Positions 5,187-63,299 of a stretch of DNA of 64,000 bases are shown piece after piece. The number at the start of each line of letters is the position of its first letter. Positions within the stretch are counted from its first letter, which is position 1. The stretch spans positions 3,472,001 to 3,536,000 of the forward strand of contig OZ024752.1 in NCBI GenBank assembly GCA_964016885.1, in the 5' to 3' direction. The notes below the pieces were generated by a model that was given only the letters and a program-made list of their open reading frames with translations, ran no database searches and was not told the origin of the DNA. The translations under genes were made by a program, and so were the position numbers. Source of the DNA: Eledone cirrhosa. Lineage: Eukaryota.

Positions 5187-5362
5187 ATAATATAAGATCA
5201 AAAGATGGTTAAAAGAGTTCCAAGTATTTGATAAAATACTTGGAACTTTTTTAACCATCTTTTGATCTTATATTATTTATACTCCACTCCTACAAACTGT
5301 AGAGTGCTACTTATCCGATATTTGCATTGCTTTATTGTGCTACAATAAAACTCACCTCCTAC
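5187..5362 (+). mobile_element. Fold-back mini insertion: palindrome 5187-5276 plus tail
   Basis: ataatataagatcaaaagatggttaaaagagttccaagtattt / aaatacttggaacttttttaaccatcttttgatcttatattat; the left arm abuts (TA)n and recurs at 42991-43030 next to an HHR. Confidence 0.8.
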
Positions 5363-6042
5363 ATATATATATATGCACCTAAACATAGTAAGCTTATTCA
5401 GGCACAAAGATGACTTACACACAACTATTGACATTTATATATATTTATATATATAAATATATTATAAAATGTATAAATATGTATATATATAGAGAGAGAG
5501 ATAGATAAATAGATAGATATATATAGATGTGTGTGTGTGTGTATGTATACTATATATTATATATATATGCGTGTGTGTGTATGTATACCATATTATATAT
5601 ATATATATATATATATATATATATATATATATATATATATATATATATATATGTTTGTGTGTATGTGTGTATACAAGACAGAGCTGGAGAGAAAGCCTCA
5701 TAATATAGGATTGGGTGCGTATGTGATGTACACAAGTATACACGCATGCGCAATCAGATATAGACGACACTAATGTTCTGGGGAAATATGATAACAAGGG
5801 TGTGGGTTAGCGTTGGAGTGAGAGAAAGTATATGTTTCTGTCTGTGTGTGCGCCTGTGTGTGATAGGGGGGGAGATACTGTAAGATGGAACAGCAGGGTA
5901 GATGTCTGGGAGTAAACAATCTGAAGTAATTATGAGACTTTTCACTGGAAACATGATTCTGTGCAATGAACTACAAACATAGTTTACAAAGTCAAATATA
6001 TGACTTTGTTGAATTTATAACATTATTAGGATTTTGTTTAGT

Positions 6043-6200
6043 GTGGATTGGCAGTATCGGTAGAGGGTCGGACGCCATGCTTTCCAGCATAGTTACGTCC
6101 CTTTACGATCTGAGTTCAAATCCCGCCGAGGTTGACTTTGTAAAATAAAGTACCAGTAATGCACTGGGTAATTGCTGGCCTTGTGCCTAAAGTAGAAACA
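6043..6200 (+). mobile_element. SINE family 1 copy with internal deletion
   Basis: ggattggcagtatcggtagagggtcggacgccatgc...gagttcaaatcccgccgagg; near-identical to 31781-31961. Confidence 0.8.
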
Positions 6201-7949
6201 ATTATTAGGATTTTTATATACTATATATTTCAATGAACATCACCTTCTTCACCACCATTGAAACCACCAAAGCTTCCTCAATATATTCAAAATCATGTTC
6301 ATCATCATCGAAATCCACCTCCTCATCATCATCATCGTCGTCATCAACACCCTCCTCCTCATCATCATCATCATCGTTATAAACATCATCATCATCATTG
6401 CCATTATCAAATGAACCATCACATACACCATATCATCATCATCATCAACAATATTAAGATCATTACCTTTACAATTATGATAACCACCGCCTATAGCAAT
6501 CATAAGAACACCGCCCCACTCTATCTAACAGTTGGTAACAAATGTGGTATTATAATTACAAGCTAATGAAAGATTTCCTTCTCTGTTGTTACTATCGGCG
6601 GATAGAGGTATGGATGAATTGCTGAATGAATGAATGTATAGCTAGAGAGAAACCATTTAAGTTCTGTTACTGATAAATTAAGGATAATTTCTGATTTAAT
6701 TCATAATTAGCATATTTTGGATTTGAGAATTCGATTCCATTTGATCTGTGATCTATTTTGTTTGTGTTCGCCTATATTATATTTACTCAAGCCTAAAATA
6801 TAAGATTTGTAAATCGTATTCATCTGGACTAAATTTCCCGCACTCAGCCACTATCTACGGTGAATTATTCTGTCAGCCTTCAGCATAAAGTTACTTCCAA
6901 GAAGTTGTAATTTGACATGGTGATTCCACAAGGCATCTTTTTTCTGGCAATTTTCCATACACAAGTATCTCCGTTAGTTGATGATCCGATTTCTTTTAAG
7001 AGGTTAAAGCGTTGCAGGGGTTAAAACAACCTTAGATGATTAGAACTGGTCTGATCATAAATTTCATTTTTCGTTAGGTGTTAGAGCCAACATATTCTCA
7101 AGATTCTTAACAGGTTTGTCTGGTGGAAACGTTTTTGTATTTTCGATAAAGGGTACTATGTTTACATCAACTAACATCTTGATATTTTGAAAAAGAAAAC
7201 TCTCTTGCTTGTTTTCTGAAGATGTCATACACAAAATGTATACTAGGTTATTTTTCATTGGAGACATCAGCATACATATTGCAGATAATTCCCAGAAAAC
7301 AAACCTCATGAGTTAGTCAAACTTGGTGGTCGTGAATTTTAATATGAAATGTGGTTATCTCTATTGCAATTCAGACTACACAAAACTGTTCTTTCTCTAT
7401 TTATCTGTTTTACATAATAGCGTCTAGACAAAAATCCAGTTTGTGCTCTCCAATTGCATTAGAATCTGTATCTTAAACATCAGAAAGAATTTTAGACGTT
7501 GGTTTTTGTAGTTGTTTACATGTGACCTTTTAAAATACACGACACGACAACAAATGTACTGATATGTAAATGAGAACAAAATGTTCCAGTTATTCAATGC
7601 ACTTTTCATGAGTATTTCCAACATGCACTCTCGCTATATTTTAATGAAGGATGTAAATATTTCTATGAACCTAATTAAATTGTTATTTCATCCGTTCTGC
7701 AGATTGAGCCCTGTATATTAAATATTAAATCCATTTGCAAAGCAAACATAAATGCATATTTATAAGACGCAAATAAACCCATGCTATAATAGCCAGTGGC
7801 GACGAGGATATTATATTACTAAAAAAAATGTTGTAATATAATACATGCCAGAAAACACGCAATGATTTGCAAAGAAGTCGCGTGGCGGAGTATTTGTGTT
7901 TTAAACGTACGAATGTAGAATCATACACACACACACAAACACACATTCG

Positions 7950-8105
7950 TGAGTCCCGAGTCCAATCGTGTGTAACCACAGTAGATAACATACTCAATAC
8001 ATTATTAGAGTGTATTCAATGCATTAGCAGTGTACTAGTAGTTTTCCCTAATGATTTCCTGCGAAAGAAACAGTTCTAGTACTGTAGAGGCCATTTCTAT
8101 ATTAA
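7950..8105. mobile_element. Decayed fold-back relative of the PLE-B pLTR: tail on - strand, degenerate HHR on + strand at 8047-8090
   Basis: ctaatga-tttcctgcgaaa-gaaacagttctagtactgta matches 63089-63127; reverse complement of 7950-8012 matches tail 63155-63210. Confidence 0.65.
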
Positions 8106-59965: not shown

Positions 59966-60099
59966 AAACGACCTCCCCCTATTGGCCCCTATACCTCCTC
60001 CCCACCCTACCCCCACCCCTCCTCAACCTGAAATACGGCCACTATGGTCATGTGAGTACCTCTTTTGTATCTACTTTTTCTGCCTGTAGAGGTGTCTTT

Positions 60100-62545
60100 A
60101 TGTGCCTGTGTATATGCGTATATTTATTGAGTACCTATTTACTTGTATGTGTATATATTTGTTTGTATATGTGTATATGTGTATGTGTTGTGTGTGTATT
60201 ATATGTATGTGTATGTATATATATATATATATATATATATATATGTATATATATATATATGTGTATGTATATTTTTTATATATATATATATATATATATA
60301 TTTATATGTGTGTGCGTGTGTATGTATGTGTGTGTATATGTATATATATATGTTTGTGTGAATACGTGTTTTATGTGTGTATATTTATGCAGGTATATGT
60401 TTGTATGTGTCTGTATTTATGTATGTATGTATGTATGTATGTGTGTGTATGTATGTATATGTATGTGTGTGTGTATATATATATATATATATATATATAT
60501 GTATATATATATATATGTATATGTATGTATATGTATGTGTATGTATATGTGTGTGTGTATGTATGTGTATGTATATGTATGTTTGTATATGTGTGTGTGT
60601 ATATATTTGTCTGTATATATGTGTATATATGTATGTGTATGTGTATGTATGTGTATATATATATATATGTATATGTGTATATATATATATGGATATATAT
60701 ATATATATATATATATGCATATATATATATGTGTGTATGTGTATATATATGTGTGTATATATATATATATATATATATATATATACGTGTGCGTGTGCGT
60801 ATGTGTGTATATGTGTGCGTGTGTGTATATATATATATATATATATATATATATATATGTGTGTATATGTATGTGTTTGTGTGTATGTATATGTATATAT
60901 ATGTGTGTATATGTGTGTGTATTTGTGAGTGTATATGTACATATATGTGTGTGTGTGTATGTACGTATGTGTATGTATATGTATGTGTATATGTATATGC
61001 ATGCGTGTGTATATATATATATGTATATATATGTATATATATATATATATGTATGTATGTGTATGTGTATGTGTGTGTATGTATGTATTTGTATGTGTCT
61101 GTATATATATACATACACATATATATATATATATATATATATATATATATATATATATGTGTGTGTATATATGTGTATATATATATATATATATATGTAT
61201 ATGTGCATGAGAGAGAGAATGTGTGTGTGTATATATATTTTGTGTGTGGGTGTGTGTATATGTGTATGCACGCGTGTGTGTGTGTATATATATATATATA
61301 TATATATATATATATGTGTGTGTGTATGTGTGTGTGTATGCGTGTGTGTGTATATATATATATATATATATATATATATATATATATATATATATATATA
61401 TATATATGTGTATGTATATATGTGTGTGTATTTGTGCGTTATATCTCTGTATATATATGTGTATATTTATGTATAGGTCTGTGTATGCATGTGTATGTTT
61501 GTGTATGTATGGATATATATATGTGTGTGTATATATATATGTGTGTATATATATATATATATATATATATATATATATATATACATGTGTATATATATAT
61601 ATATATATATATGTATATATATATATATATATATATATGTATTTGTATGTGTGTGTTTAGAGAGATATATATATATATGTATGTATGTATATGTGTGTGT
61701 ATGTATGTATATGTGTATATATATATATATATATATATATGTATATATATGTGTGTATGTATATATATATATATATATATGTATGTATATATATGTATAT
61801 ATATATATATATGTGTATGTATGTGTATATATGTGTATGTGTGTGTGTATGTATGTGTGTATATGTATGTGTATATATATATATATATATATATATATAT
61901 ATATATATGTGTGTGTGTATGTGTGTGTGTATAGATATTTATACATATGTATACTCGTGTTTGTATGTATGCGTGTGAGTGTATTTACTTGTGTATATAT
62001 ATATGTGTGTATGTGTGTATGTATGTGTATGTGCGTGTGTATCCGTGTGTGTGTGTATATATATATATATATGTATATATATATATATATGTATGTATAT
62101 GTATGTGTATATATATATATATATATATATTTGTGTATATATATGTATGTGTGTATATATATATGTATATATATATGTATGTATGTGTGTGTGTGTGTAT
62201 GTGTGTATATATATATATATGTGTATATATGTATATGTGTGTGTGTGTATATATATATATATATATATATATATATATATATATATATATATATATATAT
62301 GTGTATATATATATATATATATATATATGTATATGTATTATATATGTGTGCGTATGTATATGTGTATATGTATTTTATATATGTATGTATGTATGTATGT
62401 GTGTATGCATGTGCGTGTACATGAATATATATTTGTATATATTTATATACTTTTTTTATATATGTGTGTGTGTTTTTATGTGTGTATTTGTGTTTATGTG
62501 TGTGTTTATGGTTGCGCGTAAGTGTGTGAGTGAGTATGTGTGTTT
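60100..62545. repeat. 2.4 kb compound (TA)/(TG) microsatellite
   Basis: direct reading. Confidence 0.95.
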
Positions 62546-63082
62546 TTTTGGTGGTTTTTTTTAGGTGTGGCTTTTTTTGTTTTTCTGTTTTTTTGGTCTT
62601 TTTGGGGTTTCTTTGTTTTTTTGTTTTTTTGTGAATGTGTCTGTTGATTTGGCATATTGTTGATTAGTTTAAGAGAAGTTCGAAGATAATAGTAAGATAT
62701 GCACTCAGTATTTTGAATCTGTCTGCAGAATTCCCTAGACCTTTGTCACTTAGCAGAACTTAATGACTTTAGCTTTTAAAGAATCTCCCTTTTCTTTAAT
62801 TCTATCGAGCATGAATGACCCCCCACTGATTTTATAGACATCTGCTAGCTTAAGAGAAACTTATTGACAAGGAATGGTATGCCATCCGGAACTTGTTTAT
62901 AGATTTCTGTCTGCCTTTGTTACTCTAAAAACATAAATAAATATAAATTAACTATAGCTATGTAGAATTAGCCTTTAATGAATTCCCTTCTCTATCAACC
63001 AATGACCTGCACCCATCCCACTCCCCACCCTCTCCTACCACCTGTAGAGACCTATAAATACCATATTTATTTTTTGATACCC

Positions 63083-63133
63083 AGATTCCTGATGATTTCT
63101 AATGAATGAAACAGTTCTAGTCCTGTAGAATCT
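63083..63133 (+). ncRNA. Type-I HHR in the PLE-B pLTR (mirror copy at 57967-58017, - strand)
   Basis: agattc-CTGATGA-tttc(taat)gaat-GAAAC-ag(ttctagtc)ct-GTA-gaatct. Confidence 0.82.
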
Positions 63134-63299
63134 CTTCTATATTAAAACTATTATACTCTGCTATGTATTGAGTACCTTACTTACTGTGGTTACCTCCGAT
63201 TCAACCCGGAATAACGTATATATATATATATATATATATACACACACACATACACACACACGTACACACACGCACTCACACACATACATATATGTATAT

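Follow-up and report, generated by a model that had tools for sequence, protein, structure and literature searches.

The DNA analysed here is a stretch of 64,000 nucleotides (nt) from Eledone cirrhosa (assembly GCA_964016885.1, contig OZ024752.1, forward-strand positions 3,472,001 to 3,536,000), the whole of which we refer to as the window. It has a GC content of 31% and many TA tracts, in a host genome of 3.0 Gb assembled in 1796 contigs, and in these tracts it holds fold-back insertions made of two oppositely oriented arms, from families that for the most part are Penelope-like element (PLE) 3′ ends. A first-pass annotation, made from the sequence alone, had listed 14 such sites. All of them exist, with coordinates correct to within a few bases; 12 have inverted arms, 91-100% identical over the compared stretch, and the other two, at 13833 and 47250, have no duplicated arm and consist of a junction arm joined to a short part of the tail end, 12 nt or ~60 nt long. 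The sites sort into 12 families (A-L; Table 1). The annotation had called their sequences unrelated, which was too strong, as F and K (z 14), A and I (z 5) and B and L (z 4) show kinship around the junction. Three open reading frames (ORFs) of the window are 5′-truncated frames for reverse transcriptase (RT) and/or GIY-YIG, and their 3′ ends are those of families F, K and L; Pfam returned nothing for five of the six window proteins.

Copies beyond the window were collected by genome searches with 11 families, keeping the best 30 loci per search, and from 20 long regions and 40 evenly spaced stretches (394 kb, two chromosomes), for a total of 510 loci and 1.99 Mb. Head-to-head pairs that had not been selected by a query are called bystanders, and the counts for family K, which had 1741 search candidates, rest only on bystander copies. 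It had been proposed that one arm ends flush with a TA tract at a family-specific junction and that the other carries a tail. This held in the larger set: among 927 distinct arm 3′ ends lying at most 60 nt before the junction or past it, 770 were TA-flush, more than chance would give (1838 of 16996 random positions), and the tails measure 33-140 nt across families. Nearly all of the TA-flush ends (765 of 770) lie inside the junction (370) or tail-end (395) windows, which were drawn from the data after inspection. The raw peaks are sharp, with 52 ends of family B at -3 and 57 at +77, 29 of F at 0, and 17 of I at 0 and 23 at +96; family H is less sharp, its junction ends running from -42 to +2. 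Nor is the structure an assembly artefact in family B, the family for which raw reads were searched, in restriction site-associated DNA sequencing (RAD-seq) libraries of three other samples: reads in which (AT)n follows its junction number 3431, 2908 and 2939, and central strand-switch joints are present as well, from few read starts owing to RAD-seq.

The two kinds of end are paired by a strict rule. We found 333 distinct head-to-head pairs, 327 of them within one family, and in 227 of these both outer ends could be classed, the other 100 being omitted because an end did not abut TA, coincided with the edge of a locus or lay elsewhere. With J for a junction 3′ end point and T for a tail 3′ end point (family J being a separate label), 221 pairs were JT, 3 were JJ and 3 were TT, where an independent choice of ends would yield about half JT. 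The bystanders gave 78 JT, 2 JJ and 2 TT, and the evenly spaced 394-kb sample 13, 0 and 0. The rule holds in all 12 families, with JT pairs in the coding families numbering 22 (A), 51 (B), 7 (C), 8 (E), 16 (F), 29 (G), 15 (I), 2 (K) and 16 (L), and JT/JJ/TT counts in the non-coding families of 10/0/0 (D), 34/0/1 (H) and 11/0/0 (J). These counts, together with tail arms that stop before the junction in 20 of the 221 JT pairs, support the earlier suggestion that priming takes place at the junction and at the tail end.

The anatomy of the pairs adds to this picture. The junction arm is the longer one in 90 of the 221 JT pairs and the tail arm in 65, and the arms are equal in 66; among bystanders the junction arm is longer in 33 and the tail arm in 13 (p 0.0045). 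In the 29 pairs of family G the central loop lies on the junction arm in 7 and on the tail arm in 4. The arms overlap by microhomology at the centre in 123 of 221 pairs, and the centres cluster at RNA structure: ~60 nt above the junction in B, at the natural hairpin in G and at the 3′ edge of the transfer RNA (tRNA)-like segment in H. The arms differ by 2.5% within an insertion and by 4.7% between insertions, a comparison in which the family C rows are void because its reference locus (L333) holds nested G and A insertions. In the pair set without family C, both arms of a single insertion carry the same minority allele in 119 cases, of which 78 recur at other loci and 41 are private; random pairing would give ~15. 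Because the arm difference within an insertion is small and so many minority alleles are shared, both arms usually come from one donor. Most inserts comprise the last 50-400 nt only. There are 63 such ends in the 394-kb sample, which points to the order of 10^5 insertions genome-wide as a rough extrapolation from two chromosomes.

Table 1. Fold-back insertions, single arms and associated features in the window
Feature	Position	Strand	Remarks
Family A fold-back	5190..5362	+	junction arm on - strand 5190-5232, then tail arm; arms 41/43; 3′ end of autonomous PLE, Hydra-type motifs
Family B junction arm with last 12 nt of tail	13833..13902	-	without duplicated arm
Family C fold-back	19068..19599	-	left arm is tail arm (tail 140 nt), right arm is junction arm; arms 199/199, perfect; 3′ end of autonomous PLE
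Family D fold-back	20610..20993	+	arms 75/76; 523-nt non-coding tandem unit, retrozyme-like
Family D type I hammerhead, predicted, long stem II	20744..20823	+	
Family E fold-back	21327..21492	+	arms 58/61; tail is PLE ORF start in tandem copy
Family F long junction arm	22971..25676	+	5′-truncated RT + GIY-YIG ORF 23038-25269; type I hammerhead 25482-25516; Neptune-like linker
Family F fold-back	26078..26533	+	367-nt junction arm (-), 93-nt tail arm (+); compared arms 29/31
Family G fold-back	26999..27442	-	arms 167/172; natural hairpin at centre; hammerhead per arm (27347-27395 +, 27183-27135 -); 3′ end of autonomous PLE
Family H fold-back	42787..42973	+	arms 33/34; part of 271-nt non-coding tandem unit; copy ends at 3′ edge of tRNA-like segment
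Family A single junction arm	42994..43160	-	type I hammerhead 43091-43037
Family I fold-back	43684..43952	+	arms 45/46; hammerhead 43787-43737 (-); 3′ end of autonomous PLE, ~2 kb 3′ untranslated region (UTR)
Family J fold-back	45350..45810	+	arms 73/75; 625-nt non-coding tandem unit; permuted (S-G-C) hammerhead-like motif 45690-45746
Family D junction end, partial tandem of >1 unit	45894..46460	+	hammerhead 46330-46409
Family D short junction arm with tail-end fragment	47250..47362	-	
Family K junction arm	49350..50462	+	GIY-YIG ORF end 49350-49973
Family B fold-back	50728..50923	+	arms 52/57; 3′ end of PLE
Family K fold-back	51623..52030	-	arms 38/40; tail arm left, 54-nt junction arm right
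Family L insertion	57963..63216	+	405-nt inverted junction arm (404/405) and long tail arm; 5′-truncated RT + GIY-YIG ORF 58370-59965; internal microsatellite; hammerhead 63083-63133; 74-nt tail; Hydra-type motifs

Nine of the 12 families (A, B, C, E, F, G, I, K and L) are 3′ ends of protein-coding PLEs. The first-pass annotation had seen in the insertions many short non-coding ribozyme RNAs; this fails for these nine, which run upstream into RT and GIY-YIG, and it stands, as to the lack of coding sequence, for D, H and J, with a canonical hammerhead in D only. Walking upstream leads into sense RT and GIY-YIG coding sequence in A (loci L334/L335), C (L331-L333, L349) and G (e.g. L383, L385), and the same link was obtained for I through overlapping loci (L413, and L430 overlapping L338) and for E in L343. 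For K the GIY-YIG part alone was seen upstream, and for B, the commonest family in the random sample, the last ~50 codons of a similar ORF at one locus (L341). The family F protein matches Pfam RVT_1 and GIY-YIG, both below the curated cut-offs, and has 223 homologues at E<=1e-30, the best named one being an Octopus vulgaris protein with 69% identity. A tail running into the 5′ end of a next unit, as in a tandem or pseudo-long terminal repeat (pLTR) arrangement, was seen in E, where it continues into the ORF start (L180), and in L (L311/L346); it was not seen in the sampled loci of the other seven coding families.

In alignments, A, C and L have a CxCX5C linker, with CxxC and CxH motifs in place of CCHH. 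DKT replaces DKG in A and L, and the alignment of C does not reach this region; the N-terminal motif is RWT in A, compared with RWK in the Hydra clade, and the N-termini of L and C are incomplete. A, C and L thus carry Hydra-clade motifs, making them candidate members of that clade by motifs rather than by a tree. F and K have a Neptune-like linker. The tails of A, B, G, I and L have in common an ACTC...GAGT hairpin 10-35 nt beyond the junction, which those of F, K and H lack. At one locus (L009, G000:C2:269855413-269858563) the tail arm had folded back on the natural hairpin of the family-A tail before joining a long junction arm.

Three coding families have further copies or unusual structures in the window. 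A further family-I fold-back, at 34154-35271 and missing from the first-pass list, joins a 932-nt inverted arm that begins short of the junction to a tail arm. Around the long K junction arm, a family K insertion spans 48913-50687, with an inverted repeat (48963-49250 against 50321-50608, 95%) that extends ~140 nt beyond the junction into the flank; a K tail-end fragment lies at 48913, and it looks as if a piece of flank had been taken along and duplicated. The 3′ UTR of the family-L insertion contains a TA/TG microsatellite of ~2.2 kb (60160-62400), and the spacing of L arms elsewhere, 4-6 kb, suggests that this microsatellite is part of the element.

The annotation had also characterised the insertions as bearing hammerhead ribozymes. 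When stem II was defined strictly, an any-order descriptor failed to find a hammerhead in D, I, L and J, and looser descriptors were then applied. With the type I descriptor the characterisation holds for seven families, the matches in long arms being 41/42 in A, 18/22 in D, 10/16 in E, 29/34 in F, 57/77 in G, 28/36 in I and 19/23 in L (null 1/600), at 15-165 nt upstream of the junction. It does not hold for the other five, where the same descriptor matched no arm of B (0/5), C (0/9), H (0/22), J (0/36) or K (0/12). B and K nevertheless retain motifs that resemble the hammerhead core. An apparent hammerhead of family C was void, as it came from the reference locus with the nested G and A insertions, and in family H a hammerhead was absent in both the any-order and the type I scans. 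Among the 150 Rfam matches listed of 303 on the window at E<=1 there was no hammerhead; all were microRNA (miRNA) families below the gathering score, raised by microsatellites and palindromes.

Family J has a motif of a different kind, whose cleavage, GAAA and CUGAnGA blocks follow the order S-G-C; stems I and III are paired, as the descriptor demands. There were 54 matches, 42 of them distinct, against a null of 1 in 1.8 Mb, and stem I is built from at least 5 different complementary sequences. Only the first pair of stem II (G-C, A-U or G-U) forms. We describe the motif as a predicted, permuted hammerhead-like element. A diverged relative of family J lies at 35330-35670, with compensatory changes in its S-G-C motif (35548-35604). 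The ORFs adjoining J-family arms in two loci (L336/L337) are owned by other insertions, and family J itself is a tandem unit.

D, H and J are each arranged as head-to-tail units, of 523, 271 and 625 nt respectively, whose longest ATG-initiated ORFs are 27, 40 and 52 codons; arms built of unit sequence reach up to 1987 nt in D, 606 nt in H and 1799 nt in J. Because its long arms carry a type I hammerhead, we regard D as a retrozyme-like unit, the sole one of the three with a canonical, though predicted, hammerhead. Family H is abundant, as a 22-mer from it has 2204 exact matches in the genome and its reverse, used as a control, has none. Its unit contains a tRNA-like segment, which scores 31.5-40.2 bits with Rfam RF00005 (gathering score 29), is recognised by ARAGORN in 5 of 30 loci, has a B box motif and is seated on a longer stem (z -2.3). 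A run of five T follows ~10 nt after this segment, which by its sequence argues against simple RNA polymerase III (Pol III) read-through. H units are circularly permuted and tandem, unlike a tRNA-derived short interspersed element (SINE), a monomer that starts from the tRNA head. The 5′ ends of H copies are scattered, with 25 of 103 at tRNA positions 61-71. A modified A58 as the site where RT stops was considered and rejected, since none of the 103 H arms starts at positions 54-60. No similarity was found between H and the 11 other families studied (z all <1), and a likeness of the H and F tails proved not significant (z -0.3). In one region (G000:C2:314535923-314622902) at least 7 family-H copies recur at a spacing of ~7.2 kb, probably through later tandem duplication.

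Three features of the window lie outside the 12 families. An additional TA-flanked repeat family occupies 32729-34107 (32768-33111 against 33764-34107, 91%). A canonical type I hammerhead motif is present at 48085-48050 on the minus strand, and a nearby repeat at 48386-48473 matches 53444-53530. Two neighbouring minus-strand ORFs at 10024-11070, for which Pfam found no match, lie beside a 199-nt palindrome at 11110-11308; they read like fragments of a Helitron Rep/helicase, which is our assumption and gained no support from Pfam.

We think it probable that the inserts are PLEs together with three non-coding passengers, and that, once a TA tract has been cut, its two ends prime reverse transcription at two fixed sites on one RNA. 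Under this model an RT/endonuclease, probably dimeric, would cut both strands within (TA)n; one 3′-OH would start at the junction and the other at the tail end, aided by the TA-like bases at both sites. A tail-primed enzyme that halts behind the junction-primed one would leave only a tail fragment, and one that displaces it would duplicate the stretch between them. Both complementary DNAs (cDNAs) may then stall at RNA structure before being linked through short palindromes or microhomologies, with fill-in to follow, so that the resulting insertion would have a 3′ junction on either side and lack a 5′ junction. The templates for D, J and H would be multimeric or circular RNAs used in trans. For H a ribozyme would not be needed, and a promoter or processing site may come from its tRNA-like segment. 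Two-end priming on one RNA is the simplest model, its steps being inferred, and it agrees with in vitro work on the Poseidon element PAc (PMC11167929).

Several observations weigh against this model. At one site in family B, nine insertions carry C in the tail arm; the junction arm has G in every one of them, and C is never present in both arms, although these discordant loci came from a query bearing C and no such case occurs among bystanders. Because of this 9/9 discordance, two different repeats or RNAs must have served this B subfamily. A further 99 polymorphic alleles are confined to one arm, and the variants that the arms share could also reflect gene conversion in the palindrome. Six of the 333 head-to-head pairs mix families, which fits two RNAs or later deletion; examples are F with H (L352, 819-1719), F with D (L104, 1-1685), G with F (L182, 1218-1790) and G with L (L480, 7468-7591). 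Such joints may have been left by enzymes that families share or by deletions at a later time, and the F+H and F+D joints, with one case each, are too few to name a partner. A search by sequence for partner enzymes of D, H and J found none, the top z being ~3, for J with K.

The most serious alternative, one that we nonetheless judge unlikely, is that both target ends prime on two RNAs from the same source locus, or on two repeats of one tandem transcript, through an asymmetric dimer. The nine discordant family-B pairs, the one-arm alleles and the mixed-family pairs, three of which are JT, all speak for this reading, as does the observation that arms reach the ORF end at the junction in 29 cases and at the tail in 16. 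However, neither the strict JT pairing nor the 20 tail arms falling short of the junction would follow from two RNAs without some added reason, and mixed-family pairs make up less than 2%. Less probable again is a route in which one cDNA primes on itself (as proposed in passages of PMC3846280) and an endonuclease resolves the product at the junction, which is TA-like, so that just one side keeps the tail (PMC8557442). The near-perfect palindromic centres, the equal arms of 66 of the 221 pairs, the 41 private alleles present in both arms, the resemblance of the junctions to the TA target and local fold-backs within tails such as that in L009 all fit self-priming. Against it, a copy cannot exceed its template, yet the junction arm is longer in 90 of 221, which excludes a tail-primed fold-back as the general route; the tail arms that miss the junction, the presence of the central loop on either arm and the discordant family-B arms also oppose it, and self-priming as a general route is disfavoured. 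We consider it very improbable that events after insertion (palindrome formation, deletion between opposite neighbours in a TA tract, gene conversion) or assembly errors produced the pattern. Insertions are clustered in TA tracts, mixed-family joints may arise by such events and conversion could raise the identity of arms, but random neighbours would make JJ and TT as frequent as JT and the pairs mostly of mixed families, and the junction and the strand-switch joints of family B are present in the raw reads.

Two-end priming recalls the twin priming of the L1 retrotransposon, in which a single RNA is primed by two 3′ ends of the target and the inversion is joined by microhomology. The second start in L1 varies in position, and neither arm duplicates the other. 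In contrast, both starts are fixed in the inserts described here, and the arms usually overlap. A search of the open-access literature found no paper that links twin priming to Penelope and GIY-YIG.

The architecture itself has already been published for PLEs (PMC8557442, PMC3846280, PMC11167929). Their reported insertions include an inverted 5′-truncated copy, a one-sided tail, partial tandems, palindromic inverted joints and a bias for (TA)n (PMC8557442, PMC3846280), and all of these features of endonuclease-bearing (EN+) PLEs are common to the families here, although the tails in print are 30-40 nt and ours are 33-140 nt. The JT rule and the arm-length counts are absent from the passages of these two papers that give accounts of PLE insertion. 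The Hydra clade described in PMC8557442 is like A, C and L in its CxCX5C, CxxC and CxH motifs and its (TA)n targets, and like A and L in DKT and hammerheads. That clade is given as '<3 kb', whereas the elements here are longer, with 3′ UTRs of 1.1-2.5 kb; family C further differs in having no detectable hammerhead, and F and K in their Neptune-like linker. With PAc, the PLE protein cuts and extends both strands at AT-rich DNA in vitro, RT starts internally at two sites, which delimit the tail, a dimer is predicted and the hammerhead is dispensable (PMC11167929). No homology is reported at the PAc start site, in contrast to the TA-like bases at the junction and tail end here, and, as described in passages of that paper, the pairing of start site with DNA end and inverted products were outside its tests.

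The passengers can be compared with several known elements. Retrozymes without long terminal repeats (non-LTR retrozymes), like family D, are built of non-coding units in tandem, each bearing a single type I hammerhead (PMC7229834), and for animal retrozymes an origin from PLEs or mobilisation by them has been proposed (bioRxiv 10.64898/2026.07.22.740005). Retrozyme circles in print are 170-400 nt, compared with the 523-nt unit of D, and the two-armed (TA)n insertion was not found in passages of these two sources. Families J and H are unlike these retrozymes in being without a type I hammerhead. The block order and stems I and III of family J are like those of type-SGC hammerheads (PMC10085705), although stem II of J has one pair only and its activity is a prediction. 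Non-autonomous PLEs have been reported from Chlamys (PMC8557442). In Schistosoma, tandem SINE-like elements with a hammerhead are transcribed by Pol III (PMC6765202); these and family H are both tandem and non-coding with a Pol III-type module inside the unit, but H differs in having no hammerhead, a T5 run and the two-arm signature of PLEs, and passages of that paper do not tie the Schistosoma elements to PLE enzymes. In the open-access literature, supplements excluded, we found no paper with a tRNA-bearing unit that has the PLE two-arm signature, or with the JT rule.

How inverted-plus-tail PLE insertions are made has been named an open problem (PMC8557442, PMC11167929). What this study adds to the published architecture is the strict JT rule across 12 families and the passengers H and J. 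The 221:3:3 rule is a sharp prediction, testable in the existing in vitro system, as to which start site is used by which DNA end and whether one RNA is used or two. Since short palindromes in TA tracts resemble miniature inverted-repeat transposable elements (MITEs) or miRNA hairpins, their misannotation is easy. D, H and J provide genomic evidence for PLE enzymes acting in trans, as proposed for retrozymes, and it is likely that these three non-coding repeats borrow a PLE enzyme; family H widens such mobilisation to a tRNA-bearing unit that has no ribozyme. The broadest reading, which we advance tentatively and hold to be plausible but somewhat short of probable, is that PLEs integrate without a 5′ junction, a dimer writing a single RNA, from two fixed starts, into the two ends of a broken TA tract, and that this machinery drives a class of SINE-like parasites of its own, among them a ribozyme-free, tRNA-bearing tandem unit of 271 nt, present in thousands of copies, and one of 625 nt whose hammerhead is non-circularly permuted.

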